Source: Chitinophagales bacterium (lineage in GTDB: Bacteria > Bacteroidota > Bacteroidia > Chitinophagales > JADIYW01). Taken from it: a DNA stretch of 64,000 bases. Within the stretch, counting starts at the first letter, position 1, and every line of letters begins with the position of its first letter. The stretch is from positions 4,542 through 68,541 of the forward strand of contig JAMLHJ010000015.1 in the NCBI GenBank assembly GCA_023957245.1, in the 5' to 3' direction. A program made the translations under genes and the position numbers. The notes under the pieces are model-generated. The model made no database searches. It saw only the letters and a program-made list of their open reading frames with translations, and was not told the origin of the DNA. Below are positions 43,701-60,297 of this stretch, in pieces.

Positions 43701-43991
43701 GCATGGCAAAGATATACTTTATTCTACAATACTTTTCTTTAAAATGGAAAATAAATTTTATTGCAATAAGCAATTGACAATTAAATATATATACAAATTA
43801 AATCAAAAGGTAAATAATAAAAAATACAAATAACTTAATAATAAGCTTGCGCAATTCAAATAACTATTCTACTGCGTAATACAAATAAACTTTTCAAACC
43901 TCACAATAAGTCAATGCATTTTTTTATAATTTTTACTTCATTACATAGATTGGCAATAGTTTATAATCTTTCAAAAATAGTTATAGAAATT

Positions 43992-44022
43992 TTTGACTTT
44001 TTAATTGAACTGCGTATATTTG
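43992..44022 (+). promoter_or_regulatory. Bacteroidetes sigma70-type promoter facing the cassette array (Pc-like)
   Basis: TTTG (43992-43995), 19-nt spacer, TATATTTG (44015-44022) matching TTTG-N19-21-TAnnTTTG. Confidence 0.6.
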
Positions 44023-44040
44023 AGAGTTACAAGCAAGCCT
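44011..44040 (+). mobile_element. attI-like recombination half-site at the head of the array
   Basis: TGCGTATATTTGAGA-GTTACAAGCAAGCCT; GTTACAAGC..GCCT is complementary to the left arm AGGC..GCTTGTAAC of the site at 57046; no partner hairpin arm upstream. Confidence 0.65.
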
Positions 44041-44244
44041 AAAAGACGACACAACGACCTTCAACAAGACATCCAAAAAATCGACTTTTGAAATCCTTAC
44101 CAGAATTTTCAGTCGACCTTAACTCGACAGACAATTTCGCTGTACCTTGACACAGTACAACAGACCAACTTGGCGACACACAAGCTGACCCAAGAAAAAA
44201 TAAAACACCCCACCGCACAAAAAAATGAATTTCTGCCACCTCAT

Positions 44245-44309
44245 AAGTGGCACATTTGGCTTTGCCCTGCCCACAATCCGACCCTTCTGCAATGCCAAAA
44301 GAGCCACTT
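44245..44309. repeat. Hairpin with ACATTTG/CAAAAGAG core, left of the R-M/CBASS operon
   Basis: AAGTGGC-ACATTTG-GC...GC-CAAAAGA-GCCACTT. Confidence 0.6.
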
Positions 44310-44389
44310 TTACCCTACGCACAAAAGGCAGTACAGACGAAGCAACTTCAATTTGTAGAACCCCTACTTAAAATTATTTTAATAAAAAG

Positions 44390-44420
44390 TTTGGTAATAA
44401 GAAAACTTTACCTACTTTTG
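44390..44420 (+). promoter_or_regulatory. Promoter of the R-M/CBASS operon
   Basis: TTTG (44390-44393), 19-nt spacer, TACTTTTG (44413-44420), ending 24 nt before the first gene. Confidence 0.65.
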
Positions 44421-44444
44421 TAGCATCATTACAAAGGAATAAAT

Positions 44445-45002
44445 TTGAACACACTAATAAAAGATATCACAAACATCCAAACCGGACTCTTTGCAAAGCC
44501 CGCTGGCTTTGGCGAATTGGTGTATCTACAGTCTAAGCATTTTGACGAATTCGGACAGTTACATTCAATTCTTCACCCCGATTTGCCGACTGAGGGGATT
44601 TCTGAAAAGCACTTGCTAAAAGACGGTGATGTGCTTTTTGCGGCTAAAGGAACCAAAAACTTTGCAGCCGTTTTTGAAAACCACAACGAACCATCTGTGG
44701 CCTCCACTTCATTTTTTGTTATCAGACCAACAGACAACAAAGTGTTGCCTCAGTTTCTGGCTTGGTTTCTAAATAGCCATACCACACAAACCCTTTTAAA
44801 AGGACAAGCCATTGGCACTTCTATCCCTTCTATCTCAAAACAGGTTTTAGAGAATTTGGAAATACCAGTTCCAGATATTAAAACGCAAATGGCAATTGTA
44901 GAAATTTCAAAACTCCGCAACAAAGAAAAATCCTTGAAGCAGAAAATTGAAGCACTCAGAGAAAAACAAATTCAACAACAAATAATCAACGCAATAAAAT
45001 AA
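44445..45002 (+). CDS. hsdS: Half-size type I R-M specificity subunit (single TRD)
   Basis: LKDGDVLFAAKG, FLAWFLNS, GTSIPSISKQVLENLEIPVP..Q and a C-terminal helix; TTG start. Confidence 0.8.
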   Translation: MNTLIKDITNIQTGLFAKPAGFGELVYLQSKHFDEFGQLHSILHPDLPTEGISEKHLLKDGDVLFAAKGTKNFAAVFENHNEPSVASTSFFVIRPTDNKVLPQFLAWFLNSHTTQTLLKGQAIGTSIPSISKQVLENLEIPVPDIKTQMAIVEISKLRNKEKSLKQKIEALREKQIQQQIINAIK

Positions 45003-45007
45003 ATATC

Positions 45008-46570
45008 ATGGCTAAAATAACTCAGAAAGACATCAACGATGCAGTTTGGAAAGCTTGCGACACCTTTAGAGGCAGCATTGACCCAAGCGTTTACAAAGAC
45101 TATGTGCTTACTATGCTGTTCCTAAAATATCTCAGCGATGTGCATGACGATAAAATGGAAGGCTACTTAGCCAAATACAACGGTGATGTGGAACGTGCCA
45201 AACGTGCCATGCAACACGAACGCTTTATTGTGCCGGAGCATAGCCATTTTAAATATTTATACGACCACCGCAATGAAGCCAATATTGGTGAACTTATCAA
45301 TATTGCTTTGACTGATTTGGAAGAAGCAAACCGTGAGAAACTATACAGCGAAGACGGTGCAGGGATATTCCAAAATATAGACTTTAACAGCAGTAAGTTG
45401 GGTGAGCCAAAGGATAAAAACACCCGATTGAAAACCTTGCTGATTGACTTCAAATCCGACAAGCTGGATTTACGACCTTCTCATTTAGATGGTAATGACA
45501 TTATTGGCGGGGCTTACATGTTCCTGATTGAAAATTTTGCCAGTGATGCCGGAAAAAAAGCAGGTGAATTTTTTACGCCAAAAGAAGTTTCTACGCTTAT
45601 TGCTAAACTCACCAAAAGCAAACCCGGTTCACGTATTAGTGATCCAACTTGTGGTTCTGCTTCTCTTTTAATTAAAGCAGGTGAAGAAGTGGGTTCAGAT
45701 AATTTTTCATTGTACGGACAAGAAGCCAACGGTAGTACCTGGGCTTTGGCAGTAATGAATATGTTTTTGCATGGTTTCGATAATGCTACTATCCGCTGGG
45801 GCGATACTATCCGCAATCCCAAACTGAAAGAAGGTGATACCTTGATGAAGTTTGATACCGTTGTGGCAAACCCGCCATTCTCTTTAGACAAATGGGGAAA
45901 GGTAGAAGACAAGGATGGTGAAAAAACTACTGTGAGCTACGACCCTGAAAGCGATAAATACAACCGCTTTTGGAGAGGTGTGCCACCCAAAAGTAAAGGC
46001 GACTGGGCATTTATAAGCCACATGATAGAAACGCTGAACGAACATGGCAAAGCAGGTGTGGTTGTGCCGCATGGCGTATTGTTCCGTGGTAGCAGCGAAG
46101 GTCGCATACGCCAACGCACCATAGAAGAAAACCTGCTCGAAGCAGTAATTGGCTTGCCTGCAAATCTGTTTTTTGGTACAGGTATTCCGGCTGCTATTCT
46201 CATTTTCAACAAGCAAAAAAACAGCAACAATGTATTGTTTATTGATGCCAGCAAACACTACGAAAGTGCCAAAAACCAAAACAAGCTGCGTGAAAGCGAT
46301 ATTGAACACATTGTAACAACCTATCGTGATTTTGCAGCCGGCAAACTGCAACCCGGTGTGGTGGAAGACAAATACAGCTATGTAGCCACTCCCGAAGAAA
46401 TACAGGAAAACGACTTTAACCTGAACATCCCCCGCTATGTGGACACCTTTGAAGAAGAAGCAGAAGTGGACATTGCTGCAGTGCAGAAGGAGATTGAAAA
46501 ATTAGAAGATGAATTAAAAACGGTGCAGGCTGAAATGGATAAATACCTAAAACAATTAAATGCTATTTAA
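45008..46570 (+). CDS. hsdM: Type I R-M methyltransferase
   Basis: VWKACDTFRG, GEFFTP, DPTCGS, VANPPF, NLNIPRYVD. Confidence 0.96.
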   Translation: MAKITQKDINDAVWKACDTFRGSIDPSVYKDYVLTMLFLKYLSDVHDDKMEGYLAKYNGDVERAKRAMQHERFIVPEHSHFKYLYDHRNEANIGELINIALTDLEEANREKLYSEDGAGIFQNIDFNSSKLGEPKDKNTRLKTLLIDFKSDKLDLRPSHLDGNDIIGGAYMFLIENFASDAGKKAGEFFTPKEVSTLIAKLTKSKPGSRISDPTCGSASLLIKAGEEVGSDNFSLYGQEANGSTWALAVMNMFLHGFDNATIRWGDTIRNPKLKEGDTLMKFDTVVANPPFSLDKWGKVEDKDGEKTTVSYDPESDKYNRFWRGVPPKSKGDWAFISHMIETLNEHGKAGVVVPHGVLFRGSSEGRIRQRTIEENLLEAVIGLPANLFFGTGIPAAILIFNKQKNSNNVLFIDASKHYESAKNQNKLRESDIEHIVTTYRDFAAGKLQPGVVEDKYSYVATPEEIQENDFNLNIPRYVDTFEEEAEVDIAAVQKEIEKLEDELKTVQAEMDKYLKQLNAI

Positions 46571-46572
46571 TT

Positions 46573-47802
46573 ATGCTTACAAAAGAACAAAAACAACAAT
46601 TCAGCGATATTCTGGAAGAGTTAGGAAAGACGCTTGACATTCCAGAAACGCAATACGAAGCAGCCGTTAAAAGCTACGAAGCTGTTGGCAATTGGCTTGC
46701 AAAAGAGGATTCCACACTTGCACCTTACTCGCCTGAAATATTGCCACAAGGCTCATTCATGTTGGGTACAATGGTTAAGCCAATCAATGATAAGGACGAT
46801 TTAGATATTGATCTTGTATGCCAATTGAAAGGTAAAAATCCTGACTGGACACAGGAGGATTTAAAACATAAAGTAGGCGACCGATTAAAAGCACACGGAA
46901 CCTATAAAGAGATGCTTGATGAAGAAGGAAGGCGATGCTGGACTTTGGTTTATTCTGATGATGCAAATTATCACATGGACATTCTCCCTTCCATTGTTGA
47001 CAAAGGCTACAGAATGATTTTAGAAAAGGCCTTCTCTGATACTGAACTAAAGGATATTGAGAAACTTGGCATTCGCATAACCGATAATCAAACAGACAAC
47101 TATGAATGGGAAACCGATCATTTAGAATGGCTAAAGAGTAACCCTTTCGGTTATGGTCGTTGGTTTTTTCAGCAAGCAACTCTTGATTTCAAGAAATCAT
47201 TTTCTCTGAATGAATCAATAGCACCTGTGCCTAAATACAAAAAGGAAAAACTTCCCTTACAACGAGTAGTTCAAATTCTAAAAAGGCACAGAGATATGCT
47301 ATTTAATGGAAATGAGCACAAGCCAATATCCATTATCATCACAACCCTTGCTTCAAAAGCCTACAACAAGGAAACAGATATTATAGAGGCACTAATTAAT
47401 GTGGTTAACACCATGGAAAACTACATTGAAGAACGCTGGTCAGATGAACATGGTAAAAGGATAAAGTGGATTTCAAACCCTGTTAATGATGAAGAAAATT
47501 TTGCTGATAAATGGCAGGAATATCCGCAACGTGAAAAGAATTTTTACCACTGGCTTAGTGAAGTAAAGAAAGACCTGAACAACATAATTGGTCAAAGCGG
47601 AAAGGGTTTACAGTTCATCAATGAATCAATGATGAAGCGATTTGGTAAAGATGCAGTTACCAAAGCATTCAGTAGTTATGGTGAAAAATATTTAAAGCAA
47701 CGTGAAAGTGGTGCAATGAAAATGGCAGCAGGAACAGGAATGCTTGGTGAAACCGGAAGAACTTCTGTCCCCCAACACAAACCTTTTGGTAAGAATGAGT
47801 AG
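46573..47802 (+). CDS. cGAS/DncV-like nucleotidyltransferase (CBASS CD-NTase)
   Basis: PQGSFMLGT...DDLDIDLV, HMDILP, SNPFGY, VQILKRHRD, KPISIIITTL, NPVNDEENFADKW; tail HKPFGKNE. Confidence 0.92.
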   Translation: MLTKEQKQQFSDILEELGKTLDIPETQYEAAVKSYEAVGNWLAKEDSTLAPYSPEILPQGSFMLGTMVKPINDKDDLDIDLVCQLKGKNPDWTQEDLKHKVGDRLKAHGTYKEMLDEEGRRCWTLVYSDDANYHMDILPSIVDKGYRMILEKAFSDTELKDIEKLGIRITDNQTDNYEWETDHLEWLKSNPFGYGRWFFQQATLDFKKSFSLNESIAPVPKYKKEKLPLQRVVQILKRHRDMLFNGNEHKPISIIITTLASKAYNKETDIIEALINVVNTMENYIEERWSDEHGKRIKWISNPVNDEENFADKWQEYPQREKNFYHWLSEVKKDLNNIIGQSGKGLQFINESMMKRFGKDAVTKAFSSYGEKYLKQRESGAMKMAAGTGMLGETGRTSVPQHKPFGKNE

Positions 47803-48268
47803 AAAGTCGCTTTTAATACAAGAAGGTACTCTAAAGTCTTATTTCCCAGGAAGTCAAATAAAACGAAAAGGGGAATCGGAACTCACATGGATTGGAGTTG
47901 TTACTCCATCTCCTCTGAGTGCTACCTATCAATTAAAGCTGCACTACAAATATAATGAGGGAGCTAAGGTATATGTAATTGACCCAAAGCCATTGAAACT
48001 GGCAGAAGGGCAAGTTGTTTTACCACACGTTTATAGTACACCAGAACAACGCCTATGTCTGTATTATCCTAAAGACAAAGAGTGGAACACAGGCATGCTT
48101 TACGTACATACATTAATCCCATGGGCTTGTGAATGGCTTTGCCATTATGAATTATGGGTGGCAACGGGGACTTGGCATGGTGGAGGAGTACATCATCCAA
48201 ATGAGGCTGAAAAACAAGCCAACAAACAAAAAGAAAAAACTAATGAAGCAAGCAGCAGCAATAAATAA
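47795..48268 (+). CDS. CBASS-associated ubiquitin E2-like protein
   Basis: LPHVY...LCLYYP...EW...IPWACEWL.HYELW..TGTWHGGG; start overlaps the CD-NTase stop. Confidence 0.8.
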   Translation: MSRKSLLIQEGTLKSYFPGSQIKRKGESELTWIGVVTPSPLSATYQLKLHYKYNEGAKVYVIDPKPLKLAEGQVVLPHVYSTPEQRLCLYYPKDKEWNTGMLYVHTLIPWACEWLCHYELWVATGTWHGGGVHHPNEAEKQANKQKEKTNEASSSNK

Positions 48269-49496
48269 AGTTAGTGGAAATAAAAAGGTTTTATTCCAGA
48301 CTGAAATCCCAAGTGAATGGGATGTTTTTGAATTGGGTCAATTGTTTGAATTCAAAAATGGAATTAATGCCGGAAAGGAAAGCTACGGAAAAGGTGTCAA
48401 GTTTATTAACGTAATGGAAGTCATTTACCATGATTTTATTACTCCTGATATGATACCCGGGACAGTCCAAATATCAGATGAGCAGAAAGAGCTATATCTT
48501 GTTAAAGACGGTGATGTTCTTTTTAACAGAACATCTGAAACAATTGAAGAAATAGGAATGTCTGCCGTTTACAATGGTAACGAAGATGTTGTATTTGGAG
48601 GCTTTGTAATTAGGGGTAGACCTATTTTAAATGCAATTGACCCTGTTTATAAAAGATATTGTCTTCGTTCAAACTTAGTAAGAAATCAAATTATTAAAGG
48701 TGGACAGGGAGCAGTGCGTACAAATATTGGTCAGGGTGATTTATCACTCGTTAAAATAGCACTCCCCCCAATTGCCGAGCAAAAAAGCATAGGCCAGATA
48801 TTGTGTACAATTGATTTGACTATACAAAAGGTAGAACAGCTTGTAAATCAAAAAGAACTCCGCAAAAAATGGCTCATGCAGGAGTTGCTTTCGGGAAAAA
48901 GAAGACTGAATAGCTTTAATGGTGAAGTAAAACCAAAAGTTGTAGGACAGTTTATTAAAGAAGTTTCTGAAAGAAATAAGGAATTTAAGGTTACCAGAGT
49001 TCTCTCTGTTACCAATTCAAGAGGATTTATAAACCAGTCTGATCAGTTTGACAGGTCGGTTGCGAGTGAAGATGCATCAAATTATAAAATTGTGCGGAAA
49101 GGGCAATTTGCATATAACCCTTCAAGGGTTAATGTTGGCTCACTTGATTTACTAAGGAATTTTGATGAAGGGATTTTGAGTCCAATGTATGTTGTTTTTT
49201 CAACAGACGAAAAACATCTACTTGCTGACTTCCTATACTTTCATCTAAAAACACAATGGTTTTATGGTCATATTCCAATGTTCGTTCAAGGGAGCGTTAG
49301 AGATAGTTTATCATTTGAAGGACTTTGCTCAATGAAGTTTTTTATTCCAACCACAGAAGAGCAAAAAGCCATTGTTAAAGTGCTGCAAGCCGCAGATAAA
49401 GAAATATCACTTCTGAAATTGAAAGCTGAAAAACTGCGAGAAAAGAAAAAAGGCTTAATGCAGCAATTATTAACAGGAAAAATTAGGGTCAAATGA
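48243..49496 (+). CDS. hsdS: Type I R-M specificity subunit (two TRDs)
   Basis: EIPSEW, ALPPIAEQ, KKWLMQELLSGK, PTTEEQKAI, KKGLMQQLLTGK. Confidence 0.93.
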   Translation: MKQAAAINKVSGNKKVLFQTEIPSEWDVFELGQLFEFKNGINAGKESYGKGVKFINVMEVIYHDFITPDMIPGTVQISDEQKELYLVKDGDVLFNRTSETIEEIGMSAVYNGNEDVVFGGFVIRGRPILNAIDPVYKRYCLRSNLVRNQIIKGGQGAVRTNIGQGDLSLVKIALPPIAEQKSIGQILCTIDLTIQKVEQLVNQKELRKKWLMQELLSGKRRLNSFNGEVKPKVVGQFIKEVSERNKEFKVTRVLSVTNSRGFINQSDQFDRSVASEDASNYKIVRKGQFAYNPSRVNVGSLDLLRNFDEGILSPMYVVFSTDEKHLLADFLYFHLKTQWFYGHIPMFVQGSVRDSLSFEGLCSMKFFIPTTEEQKAIVKVLQAADKEISLLKLKAEKLREKKKGLMQQLLTGKIRVK

Positions 49497-50620
49497 GTGT
49501 AACAAATATTTCATCAGCAAATAGATACATTTTATGGGGTAAAGCTGCAGGAAGGTGCCAATACAGAGGATGTAACAAACCTTTGTTCGTGGATGCACTT
49601 ACAAAGAGTGAATTTAACCAAGCATATATAGCTCATATTGTTGCAGACGTGCCTGGTGGCCCTAGAGGAGATTCGGTTAGATCTGAATTGTTAAAAGACG
49701 ACATTTCTAATCTTATGCTTCTATGTGATGAACATCATAGACTAATTGATAAAAAGGATGTTGCAGGTCATCCTGAATCATTACTGTTAGTAATGAAAAA
49801 GGAACATGAAGATAGAATTGAAAAAGTAGCTTCAATCAATCCAAACATGCAAAGCCACATTGTTACTTACAAGGCAAATGTTGGCATTCATACTCCTGCT
49901 ATCTCCTACGAATCGGTTCGTGAATTCCTGTTGCCTTCACATTATCCGGCACAGTCACAGGCAATAGATTTAAGTTTGAGCAATAGCCCTCAGCGTGACA
50001 AAGACGCAAGCTTTTGGGCAACAGAATTAGAGAATCTTGAGAGTCAGTTTAATGAACAATTAAGGATAAAGTTTAGGAAAGGAGAAATCAATCATCTTTC
50101 CGTGTTTGCATTTGCCCCAATGCCTTTGCTCATAAGGCTTGGCACGCTTATAAATGATATTCAGCATGCTGAGATTCACCAGCCTGTAAGAGATCCAAAA
50201 ACATGGAATTTAGATGATGATGCAACTGAAACACTGTATAAAGTCATTGAGCCGACTGAAACGTTTCCAATAGTTGCCTTAAACATCTCATTAAGCGCTA
50301 CAATCAACAATGATCGAATCACTTCAGTTTTAGGAAGCGATTGTTCCATTTACACCCTAACTATTGATGCACCGTTCAATGACTTTTTAAAGTCTAAAAA
50401 ACAGCTTCAGGATTTTAGTATGGAAATGAGAAAGCTGCTGAATTATATTAAATCAAAGTGCGATGCTCAAACCCCACTGCACGTTTTTCCGGCCATGCCC
50501 ATTGCTACAGCAATTGAATTTGGCAGGGTTTGGATGCCAAAAGCAGATATGACTTTGCACATCTATGATGAGAACACAGCCAATAGTGGTTTTTTCAAAG
50601 CATTAGAAATAACAAATTAG
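49493..50620 (+). CDS. cap5: HNH-SAVED nuclease effector (Cap5-like)
   Basis: AAGRCQYRGC, AHIVA..GPRG, NLMLLCDEHHRLID HNH; SAVED motifs HLSVFAFAPMPLLIRLG and HVFPAMP. Confidence 0.88.
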   Translation: MSVTNISSANRYILWGKAAGRCQYRGCNKPLFVDALTKSEFNQAYIAHIVADVPGGPRGDSVRSELLKDDISNLMLLCDEHHRLIDKKDVAGHPESLLLVMKKEHEDRIEKVASINPNMQSHIVTYKANVGIHTPAISYESVREFLLPSHYPAQSQAIDLSLSNSPQRDKDASFWATELENLESQFNEQLRIKFRKGEINHLSVFAFAPMPLLIRLGTLINDIQHAEIHQPVRDPKTWNLDDDATETLYKVIEPTETFPIVALNISLSATINNDRITSVLGSDCSIYTLTIDAPFNDFLKSKKQLQDFSMEMRKLLNYIKSKCDAQTPLHVFPAMPIATAIEFGRVWMPKADMTLHIYDENTANSGFFKALEITN

Positions 50621-50625
50621 AAAAT

Positions 50626-50865
50626 ATGGCACGAAAAGAAAGACATGTAGTTCCCAATTCTGAAAAAGGCGGTTGGGATTCGAAACGAGAAAATGCAGAA
50701 AGGGTTTCCAAGCATTTTGAAACCAAAAAGGAAGCTATGGACTGGAGCCGAGAAAAATCAAAACAGGAAAAGTCTGAATTGATTCCACATGGAAAAGATG
50801 GAAAGATTCAGAATCCAAACAGTTATGGAAATGATCCCAATCCGCCAAAAGATAAAAAGAGATAA
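50626..50865 (+). CDS. DUF2188-family small protein
   Basis: HVVPN..GGW, F.TKKEA, ELIPHGKDGKIQ..NSYGNDP.PPKD. Confidence 0.85.
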   Translation: MARKERHVVPNSEKGGWDSKRENAERVSKHFETKKEAMDWSREKSKQEKSELIPHGKDGKIQNPNSYGNDPNPPKDKKR

Positions 50866-50923
50866 TAAAGCAAAATCCGCACAATAAAGTGGATGGCTTT
50901 ATTGTGCAAAAACAGAATATAAA

Positions 50924-52615
50924 ATGCTTATGACCATAGCAGAACTAAAACAGCTTAAAGAAAGCGAAGATAAAGTAGAGTTTAAAGAGGCAAAAAATCA
51001 ATACGCCTACAACAGCAGCCGCAAGAGTGTGCTGGGCTACACCGTAGCATTTGCCAATGAAAAAGGTGGTTATTTGGTATTTGGGTTGGAAGATGCACAC
51101 CCACACACGGTTTGTGGCTCAAAAGCTTATGAAGGTAGAGAAGGTCAATTGGAGCAAGATGTTTACCGTGATACCGGAGTAAGAATACAAACAGAAGTTT
51201 TGTTTGAGGGAACGAATCGGGTGTTGGTTATAAAAATTCCATCTCGTCCCGTAGGTAAACCACTTTATTTTAATGATGTGCCATTGATGAGGGTTGGTGA
51301 TGGTTTGGATAGAATGTCGGAAGAAATGTATCTCTCCATCATCCAGGAACAAGAACCCGACTTCTCTGCCAAATTTTGCGAAGGCATCAGCATTGCTGAT
51401 TTGGATGAAATGGCCATCAAAAAAATGAAAGAGAGCTATGCCCGCAAACAAAAGAATCCGGGCTTTTTGCAACTTAGCACCGAGCAGGTTTTAACAGATT
51501 TAAAATTACAAGACAATGGTAAGCTCACCTATGCCGCCTTGGTTTTATTGGCTAAAAAAGAAGTAATTCATGCTAAACTACCCCAAAGCAAAACTATTTG
51601 GGAATTTCGCAACAGCGAAGCACAAATACACCACGATAGCCGTGAGGTAATTGATGAACCTTTATTTATTGCCATTGACAGCATTTGGAAACTCATCAAT
51701 CAACCGACACTCAATAAAAAATATCCGATACAGTCGGGAGCTTACATTTTCGATTTGTATGATTTTAACGAAGAGGTAATTCGTGAAGCCGTTCTCAATG
51801 CCATTGCTCACAGGGATTATACCATTACCAGCGAAGCGGTTATAAAACAATATCCCAACAAAATTATCATTACCAACCCGGGTGGTTTCCCTAAAGGCGT
51901 AACAATAGAAAATATTCTTACAGTGAGCAGCACACCCAGAAGCCGCTTAATGACAGAAATTTTGGAAAAGACCGGGTTGGTGGAACGCAGTGGTCAGGGT
52001 GTAGATAAGATATTCTCCATCACCCTATCCGAAGGCAAAGCCGAACCTGACTATAAAAATTCAGATATGTTTCAAGTTTCGCTAATTCTGAAGACTGAAA
52101 TTATTGACAAGGCATTTCACGTATTCATAAGCCAATACCAAAACAGCGAGAAAGAGCCAAAATTGGGTGTAGAGCAAATCATTACGCTTTGCAAAATACG
52201 GAACGGCATATTCCAAAACCTTAAAACCGAAATTGCAAGTCAGTTAGAAAAATCAGGTTTAATTGAAAAAATTTCTGGACATACCAACCGATATACATTG
52301 TCGCAAGAATACCATGCACTGGTAAATGACGGTTTAAAAATTGGTAAAAGGTATTTGGTAAAAGAGATAGAACTCATACTTCTGGCATTGCAAGGAAATG
52401 CTTTGAAGATTGGCGATTTAGAAGATTTATTGAAAGAATCCCTATCAAGAAATCAGATAAACTATTTAAAGATGAAATTGATGGAAGATGAAGTGCTGAA
52501 AGTAGAAGGAAAAATTAAAGGAGCCAGGTATTCTATTGCTGATAAGTATGCTGATTTGAGAGGTGATGTTTTACTAAGTGCAGTTATTGCAGAACTAAGA
52601 GGTAAATATGAATAA
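50924..52615 (+). CDS. AlbA_2/Schlafen-like domain + HATPase-like putative regulator
   Basis: ESEDKVEFKEA, AFANEKGG.LVFG, REAVLNAIAHRDY, NPGGFP, VERSGQGVDKI. Confidence 0.85.
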   Translation: MLMTIAELKQLKESEDKVEFKEAKNQYAYNSSRKSVLGYTVAFANEKGGYLVFGLEDAHPHTVCGSKAYEGREGQLEQDVYRDTGVRIQTEVLFEGTNRVLVIKIPSRPVGKPLYFNDVPLMRVGDGLDRMSEEMYLSIIQEQEPDFSAKFCEGISIADLDEMAIKKMKESYARKQKNPGFLQLSTEQVLTDLKLQDNGKLTYAALVLLAKKEVIHAKLPQSKTIWEFRNSEAQIHHDSREVIDEPLFIAIDSIWKLINQPTLNKKYPIQSGAYIFDLYDFNEEVIREAVLNAIAHRDYTITSEAVIKQYPNKIIITNPGGFPKGVTIENILTVSSTPRSRLMTEILEKTGLVERSGQGVDKIFSITLSEGKAEPDYKNSDMFQVSLILKTEIIDKAFHVFISQYQNSEKEPKLGVEQIITLCKIRNGIFQNLKTEIASQLEKSGLIEKISGHTNRYTLSQEYHALVNDGLKIGKRYLVKEIELILLALQGNALKIGDLEDLLKESLSRNQINYLKMKLMEDEVLKVEGKIKGARYSIADKYADLRGDVLLSAVIAELRGKYE

Positions 52616-52892
52616 GCAGCTAATTGTTTATATGCCGTTAATGATTCTCTGTATGCTAAAGATAAAAGAGCTAAAGAAGATGATGAAAGGGATGGTACTA
52701 TTCTTTGTATTGCAGCTACTAGAGATAGTGCTAGCAACATACAAATGTTTAAACGTGCTGTATATCAACACTTTAGAGTGTTATTTGCCTGAGCTTCAAT
52801 TCTCTGTATCGGGCTCCGGATTCTTTGTATTGGCTCCGGAACCGGGCAAATTCAATTCTCTGTATCGGGCATCCGGTTCTCTAAAAAAGTAG
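52608..52892 (+). other. Doubtful short ORF containing five ATTCTYTGTAT motifs
   Basis: Motif at 52644, 52700, 52799, 52820 and 52855; no recognisable protein. Confidence 0.35.
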
Positions 52893-52898
52893 AAAATA

Positions 52899-55800
52899 AT
52901 GGACACACCAAGTTTTAAAGAAGACCATATCAGCCAGATTCCGGCATTACAAATGTTGGTGAATTTGGGTTATACCTATTTAAGTCCGGCAGAATCCGAC
53001 AGGCAAAGAGGTGGCAAAACTACCAATGTATTGCTGGAAGACGTATTGCGGAAACAGTTGAAGGAAATCAATAGCATACGGGTAAGTGCTACCAAAACCA
53101 GCATTTTTACAGATGAGAATATTGAGCGGGGAATTTTGGCTTTGAAAAACCTACCCATGAATGAAGGCTACATTGCAGCCAGTGAAAAAGCATACAACCT
53201 GCTCACCTTGGGTCAGGCATTGGAGCAAAGTGTAGATGGCGACAAAAAGAGTTTCACCCTTCAATACATAGACTGGAAAAACATCAACAACAATGTATTT
53301 CACGTAACAGAAGAATACAGCGTAATGCGAAGCACCAGCAAAGAGCATTACCGCCCCGATTTGGTGTTGTTTGTAAATGGTATTCCACTTTGCATCATCG
53401 AGTGCAAGCGACCTGACATGAAGGAGCCGTTGAAACAGGCTATCAGTCAGCATTTGCGTAATCAGCAAGAAGATGGCATCCGTAGTTTGTATGTTTATTC
53501 GCAACTCACATTAAGCATCGCTACACAAGAAGCCGCTTATGCAACCAACGCCACACCCGAAAAGTTTTGGGCAAAGTGGAAAGAGAAATTCGGAAATGAT
53601 GAAGAAGAACGCAGCTACAAAAACAAATTACAGGAACTGAAAAACAAACCGCTTCCGATTTCTATAAAAGAACAATTGTTTTCTGACCGTTTCAAATATG
53701 TTCGGCAATATTTTGACGCTTTAGAACAGGAAGAAATTCTGCCAACCGAGCAGGACAATTATTTGTTTGGTTTGTGTCGCCCGGAGCGATTGATGGACAT
53801 TGTTTTCAATTACGTTTTGTTTGACAATGGAGAAAAGAAAGTAGCCCGCTACCAGCAGTTTTTTGCCATCAAAAAATCCATGCAACGCATCAAAAATGTA
53901 GAGAATGGAAAACGAAAAGGAGGCGTAATCTGGCATACACAAGGAAGCGGAAAATCGTTGACAATGGTGATGTTGGCACAAGCCATTGCCATGGAACCAA
54001 GTATTCGCAATCCCAAAATTGTTTTGGTAACAGATAGAACCGATTTAGATAATCAAATTACCAGCACGTTCAGAAAGTGTGGCAAGTTTGTAGAAAACGC
54101 TACTACTGGGCAACGCTTGGTAGAATTACTGGAAAGCAAAAGCGATGCAGTGGTTACCACCATCATCAACAAGTTTGTGGCAGCAGTAAAGAAAATCAAT
54201 CAACCCTTAGAAAGCCACGACATTTTTGTTCTGGTAGATGAAGGTCACCGAACACAACACGGAACTTTCAATGTGGACATGCAGAAAACATTGCCAAATG
54301 CCTGTTTCATTGCCATGACCGGTACACCCCTTTTCAAGAAAGACAAAAGCACAGCAGCAAAATTTGGTGGTGTTATTGATGCTTACACCGTTGACCAGGC
54401 AGTAAAAGACAAAGCAGTTGTTCCATTGTTGTATGAAGGTCGTTTGGCATTGCAAGATGTAAATGCCAGTCCGATCGATACATTCTTTGGAATGGTTTCA
54501 GAACCATTAACCGAATATCAAAAAGCAGACATCAAGAAAAAGTTTGCCCGATACGACCATTTGAATTCTGCCGAGCAAAAAATGAGAATGATTGCATGGG
54601 ACATCAGCTATCATTTCCGTGACAACTGGCAAGGCAAAACACCATTTAAAGGTCAGTTGGTTTGCGATAAAAAGGTGAATGCGATTAAATACAAAGAGTA
54701 TTTGGATGAAATAGGCATTGTAAGCAGCGAAGTTTTGATATCATCCATTGATGAACTAGAGGGTGAAGAAAGTGCTTATGAAAAGTCACTTGAAAAGGTG
54801 AATCAGTTTTGGAAAAAGATGATGGACGAACATGGCAATTCAAAAAGCTATGAAAAGAACATCATCAGCCGTTTTAAAAACCAAAAAGACCCGGAAATAA
54901 TTATTGTAGTTGACAAATTGCTTACAGGCTTTGACGAACCCAAAAACACAGTTCTATACCTCACAAGAAATTTACAAAGTCACAAACTCTTACAAGCCAT
55001 TGCAAGGGTAAACCGAATTTATCCTGATAAGGAGTTCGGGTACATCATTGACTATTATGGTGTGATTGAAAATTTGGATGATGCTTTGCAGATGTATTCT
55101 TCATTTGAAGATTTTGATGAAGAAGATTTGGCAGGAACACTTACCAATATTTCGGAAGAAATTAAAAAACTACCGCAAAAGCACTCAGACCTTTGGGATA
55201 TTTTCAAAACCATAGCCAACAAACGAGATGCAGAAGCCTATCAGCAATTATTGAAAGATGAAGCAATAAGAGTTTTGTTTTACGATAAACTGGCTGCATT
55301 TGCTAAGGGATTAAAACTGGCACTATCCTCAATTCAATTTCATAAGGAAGTAGAAGAAAAAGTAATTAATCGTTACAAAGAAGATTTGACGATGTTTTTA
55401 AAATTGCGTTTGGCTGTTGTTGAACGCTACAGCGATGAGATTGACTACAAACAATACGAAGGGCAAATTCAAAAACTAATTGACACACACATTACCACAG
55501 AGAAAATTGAAACCATCACAGAATTGGTAAACATTTTCGACAAGGACAAATTTCAGCAAGAAGTAGAAAATACAACGGGAAAAGCAGCAAAAGCGGACAA
55601 GATTGCCAGCAGAACAGCCAAGCATATTACCGAGAAAATGGATGAAGACCCTGCTTTTTACAAGAAGTTTTCGCAAATGCTTAGAGAGACGATTGCTGAC
55701 TATGAAGCAAAACGAATCAGTGAAGCACAATACTTGAGCAGAGTTCAAGACATCATGAACAATGTACTAGCTCATACCGTCAATGACATTCCTGAGCAAT

Positions 55801-56126
55801 TGAAAGACAGAGATGTTGCCAAAGCTTTTTATGGTTTGACAGTGGAGGCATTATCTGAAAAAATTCAAGACAATATTATTCGTAAAGAAGTCGCAACACA
55901 TACGGCTTTGCAAATTGACGACCTGATTCAAGATTCTGTTTTAGACAACGGCAAAGCCATTATTGACTGGCAATACAAAACAAACATCACCGGAAAGTTA
56001 CTGATTGAAATTGGCGACTATCTGATTGATGAAGTTCGGGACAAATACAATGTGGACTTGTCATTTAAAGACATGGACAAGATTGCCGAAGATTGTATTG
56101 AAGTAGCTAAAATCCGTTACAAGTGA
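52899..56126 (+). CDS. hsdR: Type I R-M restriction subunit
   Basis: RPDLVLFVNGIPL.IIECK, WHTQGSGKS, DEGHR, TGTP, LLTGFD, QAIARVNR. Confidence 0.96.
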   Translation: MDTPSFKEDHISQIPALQMLVNLGYTYLSPAESDRQRGGKTTNVLLEDVLRKQLKEINSIRVSATKTSIFTDENIERGILALKNLPMNEGYIAASEKAYNLLTLGQALEQSVDGDKKSFTLQYIDWKNINNNVFHVTEEYSVMRSTSKEHYRPDLVLFVNGIPLCIIECKRPDMKEPLKQAISQHLRNQQEDGIRSLYVYSQLTLSIATQEAAYATNATPEKFWAKWKEKFGNDEEERSYKNKLQELKNKPLPISIKEQLFSDRFKYVRQYFDALEQEEILPTEQDNYLFGLCRPERLMDIVFNYVLFDNGEKKVARYQQFFAIKKSMQRIKNVENGKRKGGVIWHTQGSGKSLTMVMLAQAIAMEPSIRNPKIVLVTDRTDLDNQITSTFRKCGKFVENATTGQRLVELLESKSDAVVTTIINKFVAAVKKINQPLESHDIFVLVDEGHRTQHGTFNVDMQKTLPNACFIAMTGTPLFKKDKSTAAKFGGVIDAYTVDQAVKDKAVVPLLYEGRLALQDVNASPIDTFFGMVSEPLTEYQKADIKKKFARYDHLNSAEQKMRMIAWDISYHFRDNWQGKTPFKGQLVCDKKVNAIKYKEYLDEIGIVSSEVLISSIDELEGEESAYEKSLEKVNQFWKKMMDEHGNSKSYEKNIISRFKNQKDPEIIIVVDKLLTGFDEPKNTVLYLTRNLQSHKLLQAIARVNRIYPDKEFGYIIDYYGVIENLDDALQMYSSFEDFDEEDLAGTLTNISEEIKKLPQKHSDLWDIFKTIANKRDAEAYQQLLKDEAIRVLFYDKLAAFAKGLKLALSSIQFHKEVEEKVINRYKEDLTMFLKLRLAVVERYSDEIDYKQYEGQIQKLIDTHITTEKIETITELVNIFDKDKFQQEVENTTGKAAKADKIASRTAKHITEKMDEDPAFYKKFSQMLRETIADYEAKRISEAQYLSRVQDIMNNVLAHTVNDIPEQLKDRDVAKAFYGLTVEALSEKIQDNIIRKEVATHTALQIDDLIQDSVLDNGKAIIDWQYKTNITGKLLIEIGDYLIDEVRDKYNVDLSFKDMDKIAEDCIEVAKIRYK

Positions 56127-56821
56127 TGACAGCAGCTATACAATTTGGAAGCAGAACAATAGATTTTCGTTTGGAGTATTCAGACAGAAAATCGCTTGGC
56201 ATTACAGTAACACCCGAAATGGAAGTTTTGGTAAAAGCACCGACAGACACGACCATAGAAAAAGTGAAAGAGAAAATTAGAAAAAAAGCAACTTGGATTA
56301 TTAAACAGCAAAGCTTCTTTCTGTCCTTTCAACCAAAGACACCAAAACGAAAATACATAAGCGGGGAAACACATTTGTATTTAGGCAGACAGTACCGTTT
56401 ACTAATAGTAATAGGTAAAGAAGAATCCGTAAAATTAAAAGGCAAATTCATTGAAGTAACAGCCCATAATAAATCAAGAGCAAAGGACTTATTAGATAAT
56501 TGGTATTTGCAACATGCACGGACAAAGTTTCATGCAATTGCAGCACCCCTAATTGACAAATTCAAAAAGCATAAAGTTGAACCAAGTTCTATTGTGTTGC
56601 GTGACATGCCGACACGTTGGGGAAGTTGCACACCAAAAGGAAAAATCATTTTAAATCCGGAATTAATAAAAGCACCAAAAGGATGCATTGAATATGTGAT
56701 TATACATGAACTTTGCCATTTAATACATCACGACCACACTCAGAAATTTATAGATTTACAGACTAAGGAAATGAAAGACTGGGAAAAGTGGAAAATGAAA
56801 TTGGAGAAATTATTAGCATGA
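56123..56821 (+). CDS. M48/YgjP(DUF45)-family metal-dependent hydrolase
   Basis: RWGSC, YVIIHELCHL...H; commonly follows hsdR. Confidence 0.88.
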   Translation: MMTAAIQFGSRTIDFRLEYSDRKSLGITVTPEMEVLVKAPTDTTIEKVKEKIRKKATWIIKQQSFFLSFQPKTPKRKYISGETHLYLGRQYRLLIVIGKEESVKLKGKFIEVTAHNKSRAKDLLDNWYLQHARTKFHAIAAPLIDKFKKHKVEPSSIVLRDMPTRWGSCTPKGKIILNPELIKAPKGCIEYVIIHELCHLIHHDHTQKFIDLQTKEMKDWEKWKMKLEKLLA

Positions 56822-56834
56822 GAAGCCTACACAC

Positions 56835-56903
56835 AAAAGCACACACATTTGCAAGCCGCACAAGCCCAAGCACAGACCAAAGCTTGCAAAAGAGTGTGCT
56901 TTT
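56835..56903. repeat. Hairpin with ACATTTG/CAAAAGAG core, right of the R-M/CBASS operon
   Basis: AAAAGCACAC-ACATTTG-CAAGC...GCTTG-CAAAAGA-GTGTGCTTTT. Confidence 0.6.
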
Positions 56904-57045
56904 CACCAACCCAAAAAGAAATTCATTTTTTTCTTCCCACCCTTCGGTGTTTTATTTTTTCGCCACCCACAACCGACACAAAAACAGTTGGACGGAGACA
57001 GCGAAAACCTTTACTGAGCAAGGCTTGACAATGACGGAAGACAGA

Positions 57046-57196
57046 AGGCCAGCTTGTAACATGGGTTTGGCGTCATGCGGGGTGAAGTGCTTAAATTCAA
57101 GTGTAGTTTTTCAAATCAACTTTAGTGCAAGGTTGACAATTTTTTGCCCTGAAATCCCGCACGAACGCCAAGCCCAAAAACGTTGTGCCTCATGCT
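57046..57196 (+). mobile_element. attC-like site 1
   Basis: Left GCTTGTAAC; inner arms GGGTTTGGCGT.ATGCGGG / CCCGCA..AACGCCAAGCCC; right GTTGTGCCT at 57182. Confidence 0.8.
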
Positions 57197-57232
57197 AAAA
57201 AACAACCAGACACCTAATAGAAATTGAAAGAA

Positions 57233-58468
57233 ATGGAAAAAATATGTTTTGTGATTATGGGTTATGGTAAAAAGACCGACCCGACACTAGGGAAAACCTA
57301 CGACCTTGACGCAACATATCATCGTATAATTAAGCCTGCGGTTGTAAAGGCAGGCTATACTTGCATAAGAGGTGATGAAATTCTAGAATCGGGAATTATT
57401 GACAAAAGCATGTATGCTCTGCTTATTAGAGCAGATTTAGTTATTGCAGACATAACTACATTTAACCCAAATGCAATTTACGAACTTGGCATTCGACACG
57501 CTGCAAGACCCTACTCTACAATTGTAATGAAAGAAAAAGATGGCAATATACCATTTGACATAAATCATAATAAAACGTTTACATACGCTCATATGGGGGA
57601 AGACATAGGGGCATCAGAAGCTGAAAGATGTGTAACACACTTAAGCAGTTTAATTCTCGAAATAGATAAAGCTAAAGAAACAGACAGCCCGCTTTTTCAC
57701 CATATTAGAGGTGTTGAACCATATACATTACCCGAAGATGAGTATGTTCAAATTATAAAAGATTTAGCATCTAAAGAGAAAAGCATTTTCGCCCTTGTTG
57801 AGAAAGCCAAGATAGAAATGAAAAATGGAAACTTTGCAGAGGCGTCTAAAATGTGGAGAAAGCTAACAGAGAAAGTCGAAAGTGATACTTATTTTATCCA
57901 ACAATGGGCTCTATGTACATATAAAGACAAAACTGTCAATCCAAAAGTGGCATTGAATGATGCACTTACTATCATAAGTAGATTAGAACCCGAGAACCGA
58001 AACACTACAGACCCTGAAACTTTGGGTATAACAGGAGCTATTTATAAGCGACTTTGGCAAAATGACATAGAAGTAATTGAATATCTTGATAGAGCAATCG
58101 AATATTATAAAAGAGGATTCTCAATAAATCAAGATTATTATACAGGAGAAAACTATGCACTTTGCCTAGACTTCAAATCAGAAATTACATCTGATTCAGA
58201 TGAAAAAATATATTTAAAAGTAGAGGCTAAAAAGACCAGAAAAGAAATCATAAACATTATTGAAAAACTCAGTGATGACGAGGATTTTGAGATAAGAAGT
58301 GATTTAAAATGGATTTTTGCAACATTAGCGAATTGTCATCTTGCCCTAGACAATGTTGACCTGTTTGAGAAGTATAAATCCTTATTTGAAAACTGTCACC
58401 CTGAGGCATGGGAAATGGAAACTTTTCAAGATTCCGTGAAACACATTAATCAATTAAATTCAAAATAA
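57233..58468 (+). CDS. Deoxyribosyltransferase-like N-terminal domain + TPR protein (DUF4071/ASK1 N-terminus-like)
   Basis: CFVIMGYG, RGDE, ADLVIADITTFNPNAIYELGIRHA, IPFDI; TPR region with DPETLGITGAIYKR and YYTGENYA. Confidence 0.75.
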   Translation: MEKICFVIMGYGKKTDPTLGKTYDLDATYHRIIKPAVVKAGYTCIRGDEILESGIIDKSMYALLIRADLVIADITTFNPNAIYELGIRHAARPYSTIVMKEKDGNIPFDINHNKTFTYAHMGEDIGASEAERCVTHLSSLILEIDKAKETDSPLFHHIRGVEPYTLPEDEYVQIIKDLASKEKSIFALVEKAKIEMKNGNFAEASKMWRKLTEKVESDTYFIQQWALCTYKDKTVNPKVALNDALTIISRLEPENRNTTDPETLGITGAIYKRLWQNDIEVIEYLDRAIEYYKRGFSINQDYYTGENYALCLDFKSEITSDSDEKIYLKVEAKKTRKEIINIIEKLSDDEDFEIRSDLKWIFATLANCHLALDNVDLFEKYKSLFENCHPEAWEMETFQDSVKHINQLNSK

Positions 58469-58469
58469 A

Positions 58470-58874
58470 ATGGCAAAAGAGTTTAAAATTTTCATTAGCC
58501 ATTCATGGGCACATAGTGATGACCTTGAAGCTTTACAAAACTTACTTAACGCACGCGGCTACTTTAATGTAGAATTTCTAGAAGCGTCAAAGAAAGTTCC
58601 AATCAACTCTGAGAATGCAACTTATGTGAAATCAGTACTTAGAGATAGAATTCGAAATTCCAATATCATTTTGGCACTAGCAGGCATTTACGCATCACAT
58701 AGCGAATGGATGATTTGGGAACTTGAAACTGCACAATCTTATGGAATCCCGATTGTAGGAGTAATTCCCAGAGGACAAGAAAGAATTTCGACAGAAGTTT
58801 ATTCAAGGTCTAAAATTGATGTCCGTTGGAATACTGAAAGCATTGTACAAGCAATTAGAACATATGCTATATAA
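58470..58874 (+). CDS. TIR-domain protein (ThsB/DUF1863-like)
   Basis: IFISHSW, SEWMIWELETA (catalytic Glu), PIVGVIP.G, VRWNTESIV.AI. Confidence 0.85.
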   Translation: MAKEFKIFISHSWAHSDDLEALQNLLNARGYFNVEFLEASKKVPINSENATYVKSVLRDRIRNSNIILALAGIYASHSEWMIWELETAQSYGIPIVGVIPRGQERISTEVYSRSKIDVRWNTESIVQAIRTYAI

Positions 58875-59025
58875 AGCACGAAGGCACAACATCACCTATA
58901 CGCAAGCAGGGGTTTCGTGCTTCGTAGGACAGGAAAGTGCTAAATTTGAAGTTCAGTTCTTCGTAGGTAGTTCAGTGGTTAAAATCCCTGCCTGCGTATA
59001 GCTGAGAACCGTTATGGGCAAGTTT
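58875..59025 (+). mobile_element. attC-like site 2
   Basis: Left AGGCACAAC; inner arms CTATACGCAAGCAGGG / CCCTGCCTGCGTATAG; right GTTATGGGC at 59011; begins immediately after the TIR stop codon. Confidence 0.85.
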
Positions 59026-59183
59026 ATGAAACATAGCGGTCAGACAAGAGAACCACCAAAGACAAGTATTCTCGACAGTTCTTAACGGACTTCGACATAT
59101 TATTATCGTGGAGACCAGCGACCACAAAAAAACGGGGCGGACACCGAAAAGCCAAACGAGTAGGAAACAAAATTTTATATATA

Positions 59184-59495
59184 ATGAAACTTCTAATTAA
59201 CCAAATAATCCTGCTGATTTTAGTTTTTATTTTCAATTCATGCTCAAAATCAAATAATATAGTTGGGTGCTGGAAAGACCAACATTCCCAAACGATTATT
59301 ATGAAAGATGATGGGACTCTAACTAGGGCTTCTCATGAAGGAACTTGGAAATTAATAGATAATGACAGATTAAATTTTATGTGGTCAGATGGTAGTACCG
59401 ACACTCATACAATAGTAAAAATAAATAATAATTTAATGGTAATTAAATATAACGGTTTTCTTGAATTTACTTGGTACAAAGAAGATTGCAATTAA
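59184..59495 (+). CDS. Small lipoprotein, unknown function
   Basis: Lipobox FNSC, IVGCW, GTWKL pattern. Confidence 0.7.
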   Translation: MKLLINQIILLILVFIFNSCSKSNNIVGCWKDQHSQTIIMKDDGTLTRASHEGTWKLIDNDRLNFMWSDGSTDTHTIVKINNNLMVIKYNGFLEFTWYKEDCN

Positions 59496-59518
59496 AAACA
59501 TTAACCTAATAAATTTAT

Positions 59519-60097: not shown

Positions 60098-60114
60098 CAA
60101 TGAAGAACGAAAGA

Positions 60115-60262
60115 AAACCAGCCCATAACAGCACCTACCCAAAAGTGGCGGTTCAGTGGTTAAATCAAGCTTTATGCTTCTATCAAAGTTTGTGCTTGGT
60201 TGACAGTAAAATGCTTCGAATTCGCCACCTTCGGGTAGCTGCGAACCGTTATAGCCAATAGC
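60115..60262 (+). mobile_element. attC-like site 3
   Basis: Left GCCCATAAC; inner arms GCACCTACCC..AAGTGGCG / CGCCACCTTCGGGTAGCTGC; right GTTATAGCC at 60248. Confidence 0.85.
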
Positions 60263-60297
60263 TGGACAAACGCACCGCAAAAATACTATCGACAGAA

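Follow-up and report, generated by a model that had tools for sequence, protein, structure and literature searches.

A 13.2-kb block of interleaved restriction-modification and CBASS genes: a probable giant gene cassette of an integron-like recombination system

We analyzed a stretch of 64,000 nucleotides (nt) from a Chitinophagales bacterium (NCBI GenBank assembly GCA_023957245.1, contig JAMLHJ010000015.1, positions 4,542 to 68,541 of the forward strand). This whole stretch is called the window, and positions given without a contig label are counted in it. The subject is a block of 13,156 nt, T44027 to G57182, which reaches from the crossover point of an attI-like site to the crossover point of the first attC-like hairpin. 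The block is likely to represent a single giant gene cassette belonging to a Flavobacteriales system of integron-like site-specific recombination. Its cargo consists of 11 open reading frames (ORFs), in which a type I restriction-modification (RM) system is interleaved with a cyclase-E2-Cap4 CBASS (cyclic-oligonucleotide-based antiphage signalling system), together with accessory genes. The features of the block are listed below; the recombination point between G and TT is written G/TT.

43848 to 44026, forward strand: attI-like site with three direct repeats of the TGCG(T/C)A(A/T)(T/A)T type, one of four copies in the genome
43992 to 44022, forward strand: Pc-like promoter motif within the attI-like site (TTTG, 19 nt, TATATTTG), conserved in the other attI copies
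44026 to 44040, forward strand: crossover between G44026 and T44027 and the first 15 nt of the cassette, GTTACAAGCAAGCCT
44027 to 44330, forward strand: conserved 5' leader module (7 leaders aligned from 6 genomes, all beginning at G/TT)
44194 to 44234, forward strand: A/T-rich segment, the inverted repeat of 56917 to 56961 (two perfect 16-mers)
44245 to 44309, forward strand: hairpin of the leader (TGGCACATTTGG...CCAAAAGAGCCA), in which a C-G pair is set between two A.A mismatches, then CTTTT (z -2.77)
44390 to 44420, forward strand: putative promoter motif of the cargo, TTTG (44390 to 44393), 19 nt, TACTTTTG (44413 to 44420)
44445 to 45002, forward strand: ORF 1, half-size HsdS with one target-recognition domain
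45008 to 46570, forward strand: ORF 2, HsdM type I methyltransferase (N6_Mtase, 1.4e-100)
46573 to 47802, forward strand: ORF 3, CBASS CD-NTase (cyclase) (PADLOC PDLC00780, 7e-142)
47744 to 48268, forward strand: ORF 4, CBASS E2-like protein, start codon uncertain (PDLC00863, 4e-51; no Pfam match)
48129 to 49496, forward strand: ORF 5, full-length HsdS lying between CBASS genes, start codon uncertain
49493 to 50620, forward strand: ORF 6, CBASS effector, HNH endonuclease-SAVED fusion, Cap4-like (PDLC00739, 5.5e-156)
50626 to 50865, forward strand: ORF 7, small DUF2188 protein
50875 to 50910, either strand: terminator-like hairpin of 35 nt, readable on both strands, which fills the gap 50866 to 50923
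50924 to 52615, forward strand: ORF 8, Schlafen AlbA_2 and HATPase_c_4 protein
52608 to 52892, forward strand: ORF 9, 94 aa, no family match
52899 to 56126, forward strand: ORF 10, HsdR type I restriction subunit (PDLC03041, 1e-219)
56123 to 56821, forward strand: ORF 11, YgjP-like metallopeptidase
56822 to 57045, forward strand: conserved 3' trailer module of 224 nt
56835 to 56903, forward strand: trailer hairpin, homologous to the leader hairpin and in the same orientation, then TTTT (z -5.17)
57046 to 57189, forward strand: attC of the block, with R'' flank AGGCCAGCTTGTAAC (57046 to 57060), imperfect hairpin, R' core and crossover between G57182 and T57183 (135 bits)

As shown in the list, HsdR, HsdM and HsdS of a type I RM system were all found in the cargo. 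The cyclase, the E2-like protein and the HNH-SAVED effector make up a CBASS of type II in its E2-only form, and an hsdS gene interrupts the order of these genes. An earlier note on this DNA, made from the letters alone, had described about ten genes with their own promoter; our count is 11 ORFs, and the motif of TTTG, 19 nt and TACTTTTG is present as a putative promoter. The consensus for Bacteroidetes promoters is TTTG/TAnnTTTG. A scan for sigma-70 promoters gave promoter-like matches at or under the shuffle expectation. The terminator scan was limited to loops of 3-8 nt, and the leader and trailer hairpins fall outside this limit. An ORF of 136 aa with a GTG start (56788 to 57198) extends over trailer and attC, matches no family, and is unlikely to be a real gene.

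The two ends of the block were then compared. Between GTTACAAGCAAGCCT (44026 to 44040) and AGGCCAGCTTGTAAC (57046 to 57060), 13 of the 15 positions are complementary, and the pattern is 9 matches, a 2-nt mismatch (AA opposite CA) and 4 matches. When the whole 3.09-Mb genome was searched for GTTACAAGCNNGCCT with at most 1 mismatch, 1 forward and 1 reverse occurrence were obtained, and these are the two ends of the block. The reversed pattern, used as a control in the same genome, gave 0 forward and 0 reverse occurrences. The earlier note had placed the end match at 44026 and 57182. The 13/15 match proved to be real, but its right end lies at 57060 and not at 57182. The attC hairpin starts at 57046 and has the G/TT core at its 3' end, with 57182 as the G. 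Since 57182 is this G, the segment 44027 to 57182 corresponds to the cassette as cut at G/TT on both sides.

The same relationship was found in other cassettes. In 9 of 9 cassettes checked, the start was perfectly complementary over 9 nt to the cassette's own R''. Over 15 nt, the mean match was 12.3 for self pairs versus 7.5 for 72 non-self pairs, and the top non-self match, 13, belonged to two cassettes having a common R box. Five other cassettes have the same pattern of 9, 2 and 4; with AA opposite CA it occurs in cassette C3_1, in the third cassette of the window and in a 6.1-kb cassette of genome G014, and the ends of the fourth cassette of the window (about 4.6 kb, TOTE system) match at 14/15 positions. 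The G+C content of the block is 0.36-0.42, versus 0.30-0.35 on the btuB side, and this contrast was counted for a foreign origin of the block.

To describe the attC sites, we aligned 8 of them from the source genome, and a common fold was obtained in which 90.7% of cells are paired, versus 69.5% in shuffles. Compensatory changes were present in 13 of 23 pairs, 0 of 500 shuffles attained the observed values, and slid controls paired at no more than 45%. In the consensus fold, two symmetric 1x1 mismatches occur at columns 35/130 and 38/127, and no base is bulged. In classical attC sites, extrahelical bases of the folded site set the choice of strand. An attC of genome G028 is 90% identical and aligns to 57043 to 57184. 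At gathering thresholds, none of the three clear attC sites of the window matched an Rfam family; the only Rfam hits in the window were the cobalamin riboswitch, the DUF805 RNA and a tRNA.

A covariance model was built from these 8 sites and run with its filters off. The three attC-like hairpins of the window, each about 145 nt long, scored 133-139 bits, and in the source genome 9 sites outside the training set scored 25.7-90.2 bits; many sites were found in other genomes. Within 44027 to 57040, the best score was 12.6 bits (E 0.38, 52266 to 52363), so that no internal attC was detected there by this model, and housekeeping DNA at 2667 to 2706 gave a background of 13.7 bits. The ORFs of the cargo abut or overlap, and the sole non-coding gap is 58 nt (50866 to 50923). 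Because this gap is too short for an attC, the gene packing leaves the block no place for one. The statement of the earlier note that no attC-like hairpin lies inside therefore holds in a scan with an attC model, the best internal score being at background level. An inverted repeat inside hsdS (48601 to 48630 and 48751 to 48780) was tried as an attC and rejected; it has no AAC/GTT frame and no match to the model.

The left end of the block was also defined by the attI-like sites. The 179 nt before G44026 recur at three more places in the source genome (G000), on contig C3 (117531 to 117710, 94% identity), contig C1 (460790 to 460969, 91%) and contig C19 (230058 to 230237, 74%). Every alignment of these copies with the window copy (43848 to 44026) stops at 44026, distinct sequences follow, each beginning GTTA, and each of the four copies heads its own cassette array. 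The promoter motif of the attI-like site ends 4 nt before the crossover and is directed into the array. It fits the Bacteroidetes consensus and would act like the Pc promoter of integrons. No recombinase gene adjoins the window copy, the other side of which is occupied by the cobalamin riboswitch and btuB.

Next to the crossover points lie the leader and the trailer. The stem of the leader hairpin is conserved between genomes, with compensatory changes. The hairpin motif occurs just twice in the whole genome, and both occurrences are in the frame of this block, where the inverted A/T-rich 16-mers flank the two hairpins. Leader and trailer sequences have 70-86% identity between cassettes with unrelated cargo (RM, resistance-nodulation-division (RND) efflux, prokaryotic Argonaute (pAgo) and Mokosh-like). 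Where the operon occurs without the frame, homology reaches only from about 44350 to about 56819, which indicates that the promoter at 44390 to 44420 belongs to the cargo and travels with it. The frame may form an insulated expression unit that is independent of position.

Leaders homologous to 44027 to 44330 were also found in other genomes, and they begin at G/TT, after an attC in G008 and G028 and after an attI-like site in G014. The cargo behind them differs: an MmeI-type RM system with an ATPase in G014 (6.1 kb, ends matched), a type III RM system in G012, HsdR in G008, and a TetR-RND efflux operon of about 10 kb in G028 and G035. A DNA search of 45 genomes with the whole block returned end modules only, with no coding homologue at E <= 1e-20. 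A scan seeded with proteins gave 56 loci, 7 of which were compared by blastn (L055, L056, L057, L058, L098, L106 and, in part, L109). The interleaved order of RM and CBASS genes was present in 7/7 of the compared loci, at 67-91% nucleotide identity.

Two of these loci are informative on the ends. In L058, from another metagenome-assembled genome, homology with the RM and CBASS block begins at 44024, with GTTACAAGCAAGCCC... following unrelated DNA. In L056, homology extends from 44157 to 56985, including the trailer; next come GGGCCAGCTTACAAC and an attC-like site scoring 36.7 bits. The search for the block elsewhere, which the earlier note had proposed as a check, thus gave the same starting base in one locus and the trailer with an attC at the right end in the other. 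L055, L057, L098 and L106 contain the cargo only, with no attC; homology starts at 44350 to 44352 in L055 and L106, and L057 spans 45016 to 56721.

Some further arrangements were seen in these genomes. At about 98,070 of contig C8 of G033 (L042/L035), the trailer is followed by AGGCCAGCTTGTAAC, ATGC and GTTACAAGCAAGCCT, so that the two 15-mers lie 4 nt apart and the attC hairpin between them is missing; the site may be an attC that is minimal or has suffered a deletion. On contig C8 of G028 (L037), about 150 nt before two successive attC sites are near-identical (830 to 990 and 11480 to 11640) and end at R'' (GGCACACACA). This repeat could be an element inserted at attC sites, for example the end of a group II intron. 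A cassette of G031 holds a group II intron reverse transcriptase.

The start motif was searched for in metagenome contigs, and 44 contigs were obtained, in 27 of which the motif stands directly after an attC found by the covariance model. L127 and L146 carry the same leader, half-size hsdS and hsdM (86-90% identity) behind two different attC sites, and the leader and hsd genes of the block recur in L142 and L143. L142, whose sequence is long enough to show it, keeps the half-size hsdS, hsdM, hsdS, the DUF2188 gene and hsdR, and unrelated ORFs replace the CBASS and Schlafen genes in the same slots. The type I RM operon can be described as a scaffold with guest slots, filled in the window (46573 to 50620) by the cyclase and E2 genes and by Cap4, and also by Schlafen.

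Both ends were present in 13 contigs, with lengths of 12,479, 12,452, 9,748, 7,788, 6,844, 5,269, 2,952 (twice), 2,940, 2,457, 1,724, 1,712 and 460 nt. These are not 13 independent cases, since L116 and L138, and likewise L121 and L147, are the same elements from different samples. The start 9-mer was perfectly complementary to R'' in 11 of the 13, L125 having one mismatch and L140 no match, and the two 9-mers co-vary in two forms, GTTACAAGC/GCTTGTAAC in 8 contigs and GTTGTAAGC/GCTTACAAC in 3. No additional attC was detected by the model, filters off, inside L116, L138, L154 or L133. The cargo of L116 (12.5 kb) is an Snf2/HKD helicase, a type IIG RM system and a short pAgo pair; L154 (9.7 kb) is a Mokosh-like locus encoding MkoA-like and IetA-like proteins, and L133 (7.8 kb) holds a type I RM system. 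In a check of sequencing runs, no run contained more than 0.29 of the sampled words, and the Logan contigs of 4 metagenome runs were aligned. In one X2 contig and one X4 contig, which come from two studies, 57043 is joined to 44054 or 44047. The short sides measure 29 and 22 nt and have 44026 as their exact first base; being under 30 nt at 90% likeness, they give only a hint.

The candidate enzyme of the system is encoded on contig C3, where a gene for a tyrosine recombinase of 364 aa (116419 to 117510, minus strand) lies divergent to the attI-like site and abuts it. The cassette that comes next has genes for a pentapeptide-repeat protein and a Cass2 'integron-associated' protein. This is the only intact recombinase gene of the genome; the attI copy on C1 keeps an N-terminal remnant of 57 aa, and another recombinase fragment is found at 6882 to 7046 of contig C21. 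Full-length relatives with at least 55% identity were present in 24 of 300 other genomes sampled from the order, many of them at contig ends. In 3 of 3 genomes inspected (G000, G014 and G028), the recombinase gene stands beside attI or attC sites, and this adjacency suggests that enzyme and sites belong together. Gene and cassettes share one strand in G014 (contig C11, 31470 to 32699) and G028 (contig C9, 327435 to 329400), and are divergent in G000.

The best family match of the recombinase was NF040815 (XerA/integron-integrase), with 209.6 bits, below the cut-off of 220. Against TIGR02249 (integron integrase) it scored 178.5 bits versus a cut-off of 265, in two stretches which skip model positions 180-255. 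The alignment with the solved structure of IntI4 (2a3v) skips chain residues 214-248, that is, the IntI-specific additional domain, and the closest solved relative is an XerC-like protein (4a8e). At its N-terminus, the recombinase is extended by about 85 aa. Integron integrases are defined by the IntI-specific additional domain, which lies around patch III (10.1101/2022.02.06.479319).

The attC of the block is followed by an array of same-strand cassettes, as listed below.

57183 to 59011, forward strand: second cassette (1.83 kb), with a TIR/TPR-S protein, a ThsB-like TIR protein and its own attC
59012 to 60248, forward strand: third cassette (1.24 kb), with a DUF805 RNA motif, an ORF of 103 aa, an 8xMP membrane protein and an attC
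60249 to 64000, forward strand: start of the fourth cassette (about 4.6 kb, extending past the window), a TOTE / PDC-M16 conflict system

Cassettes neighbouring the block measure 1.1-1.8 kb. The DUF805 RNA motif (RF03081, 70 bits, 59103 to 59170) lies in the third cassette upstream of the 103-aa ORF, so that a cis-regulatory RNA is contained in a mobile cassette. Arrays are split by the assembly, because four contigs terminate inside an attC. We also observed a second family of repeats, about 50 nt long (CTATATTTGAAAGAGTTTGGGAAAG...CACAGACTGGC, then GTT), with at least 15 occurrences at a spacing of 1-3 kb and also at contig ends. Its sites in G000 include 301499 to 320958 of contig C12 (8 copies), the starts of contigs C5 and C9, and 91731 to 92938 of contig C6, among others; zero copies are on the contig of the window, and this was counted for the block being one unit. 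At its start this repeat is similar to attI at the 3' end, with the TAnnTTTG motif in common, and the family may represent a second kind of cassette boundary or a promoter borne by cassettes.

Could the block have arisen in another manner? One explanation, which we regard as unlikely, is that the frame belongs to a cassette and the cargo was swapped into it otherwise, with leader and trailer as homology arms or with the two hairpins of like orientation as ends for a single-strand transposase that recognises hairpins, the 13 kb never having been an integron-type circle. The identity of 70-86% between leaders and trailers around unrelated cargo fits this, as does the existence of the operon without leader, trailer or attC (L055, L098 and L106 over about 44350 to 56819, and L057 over 45016 to 56721). 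The hairpin pair is found in no other place of the genome, and both 15-mers stand behind the trailer in G033, separated by just 4 nt. The genome also encodes 4 matches to Y1_Tnp. However, neither the block nor its surroundings contain a Y1 transposase gene, none of the 4 showed a connection to the leader and trailer hairpins, and cleavage motifs were not found. Moreover, a swap accounts for the entry of the cargo but not for the position of the frame at G/TT junctions. The same leader and first genes stand behind different attC sites (L127, L146) and behind attI, as site-specific movement predicts, and the start and R'' co-vary across up to 12.5 kb.

It is much less probable still that two or more ordinary cassettes, for example one with RM and one with CBASS genes, were fused through the loss of intervening attC sites. 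The version in L142, with the same leader and hsd genes and with other genes instead of CBASS and Schlafen, could be read in this way, and the hairpin at 50875 to 50910 divides the block into two transcription units. However, the CBASS genes are interleaved with the RM genes, the ORFs overlap or abut, and no attC remnant is seen. The interleaved order exists in 7/7 loci, 4 of them without any attC, which indicates that the composite formed outside the cassette system. A coincidental 13/15 match in an ordinary defence island beside a cassette array could be supported by the frequent occurrence of such islands and by the block's own promoter. Nevertheless, we give this explanation almost no credence: the chance of at least 13/15 at a fixed pair of positions is about 1e-6 (a binomial estimate with equal base frequencies), the mismatch pattern is the same as in other cassettes, and both 15-mers recur together in other genomes and in metagenomes.

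We therefore return to the single giant cassette. The block is read as one unit of the cassette type because of four independent lines of evidence: its end signature, the lack of an internal attC, the stop of the attI homology at G44026 and the leaders that start at G/TT elsewhere. On these grounds the proposal of the earlier note, a single 13.2-kb defence cassette, is supported. The architecture, the end signature, the lack of an internal site and the recurrence of ends and cargo in other contexts were all directly observed. Giant defence cassettes with matched ends and a common leader and trailer frame form a recurrent class, of which the block is one member. The earlier note further held that the system can move complete operons. 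Comparison suggests that such units would move as a whole (L127 and L146, L058, L056, and the end-matched cassettes of 5.3-12.5 kb), but no excision or circle was seen.

Several points weigh against this reading. No circle, empty site or excision product was found in the data analyzed. The check at the btuB riboswitch proposed by the earlier note was carried out in G001, the nearest congener, in which the riboswitch is present with neither attI nor array, and homology stops after the riboswitch; since the next gene of G001 has its orthologue on contig C23 of the source genome, this is not a clean empty allele joining G44026 to T57183. The recombinase lacks the IntI-specific domain, and an integron-type mechanism is accordingly not established. 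The covariance model was built from 8 attC sites of the source genome only and could miss another class of site. In G028 and G035, the starts of the leader-bearing RND units of about 10 kb are not complementary to the next attC, which indicates that some large units are rearranged or composite. In a canonical Vibrio integron, larger cassettes are captured less, and recovery of a 4-kb cassette failed (10.64898/2026.03.17.712381).

If the single-cassette reading is correct, the events may be considered as follows. The cassette would occupy the first position of the array, at the attI copy beside the btuB riboswitch, and the C3 recombinase would act on this attI in trans. A circle of 13.2 kb would be released or inserted by recombination at G/TT, with the cassette's own attC as one partner and attI or an attC upstream as the other; in this circle, the first 15 nt would pair with the 15 nt before the attC hairpin (9 bp, a 2-nt mismatch and 4 bp). 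The terminator-like hairpin of the leader might halt read-through from the attI promoter, so that the cargo would run from its native promoter; the trailer hairpin would end transcription of the cargo, and the attC would close the cassette. We infer the identity of the enzyme, the choice of strand, excision and integration, and the functions of promoters and terminators.

In a wider sense, the Bacteroidota may possess a distinct and widespread integron-like system with an Xer-like recombinase devoid of the IntI domain, attC sites with symmetric mismatches and several attI sites served in trans, in which a dedicated frame captures whole defence operons and the system mobilises them as single cassettes of at least 13 kb without a size limit; we hold the chances of this to be about even. 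The dedicated frame means here the leader hairpin, the trailer hairpin and the 15-bp matched R stem, the operons keeping their native promoters. If such units move, integron-like platforms can shuffle entire immune loci, and surveys of Bacteroidota cassettes are blind to the largest units. The leader and trailer frame would then also offer a concrete handle on the question of how cassettes are made.

Type I RM loci can embed defence genes, as in the prr locus with PrrC. The block resembles loci of the prr type in having guest defence genes between the hsd genes, and other guests occupy the same slots in L142. It differs from them in that its guests are the three genes of a CBASS, placed on both sides of hsdS, and in that a cassette encloses the entire locus.

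Compared with the sedentary chromosomal integrons of the Vibrio type, the present system shares an attI-like site with an outward promoter, same-strand cassettes ending in AAC...GTT hairpins whose structure is conserved and sequence variable, a G/TT crossover, cassette starts that match their own R'', and a Cass2 protein in a cassette. The attC sites show the R''-L''...L'-R' imperfect inverted repeats with AAC/GTT of canonical integrons, and at C3 the attI lies beside the recombinase gene with insertion at G/TT. In contrast, the recombinase does not have the IntI-specific domain, the consensus fold of the attC sites has two symmetric 1x1 mismatches instead of the extrahelical bases of classical sites, the ends are complementary over 15 nt, and four attI copies accompany one intact recombinase gene. 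Instead of a small and mostly single promoterless ORF, this cassette of 13,156 nt contains 11 ORFs and its own promoter motif. The system is integron-like and not a canonical integron. With regard to XerA-type and archaeal integron integrases, NF040815 is the best family match of the recombinase, with a score under the cut-off; archaeal IntIs carry the additional domain (10.1101/2022.02.06.479319), unlike the C3 recombinase, which lacks it and has the N-terminal extension of about 85 aa.

Among the Bacteroidetes proper, one complete integron, in Salinibacter ruber, is given in the IntegronFinder 2.0 preprint (10.1101/2022.02.28.482270). A cassette as a rule contains one ORF, some cassettes contain two or none, and promoters of their own are present in some (PMC8618304). 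The largest known cassettes were stated in 2016 to be '~2 kb', versus 13 kb here, and standard integron detection links attC sites only within 4 kb (both 10.1101/030866). In the literature searched we found no description of an integron-like system of Flavobacteriales or Bacteroidota or of cassettes this large, and the supplementary tables of integron papers could list bigger cassettes than their main texts give. The block is like the anti-phage cassettes of integrons (10.1101/2024.07.02.601686, 10.1101/2024.07.02.601719) in that defence is stored as cassettes and the first position adjoins the attI promoter. Those cassettes are described as 'streamlined', they 'never exceed 2 components', and they include no long loci of the kind of BREX or CRISPR-Cas (10.1101/2024.07.02.601686). 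Here, in contrast, an RM and CBASS locus of 11 ORFs lies in one cassette, and multi-gene loci of 12.5, 9.7 and 7.8 kb were found as well. Single cassettes of 5-13 kb with complete immune loci thus contrast with accounts in which cassettes are limited in size and hold at most two components.

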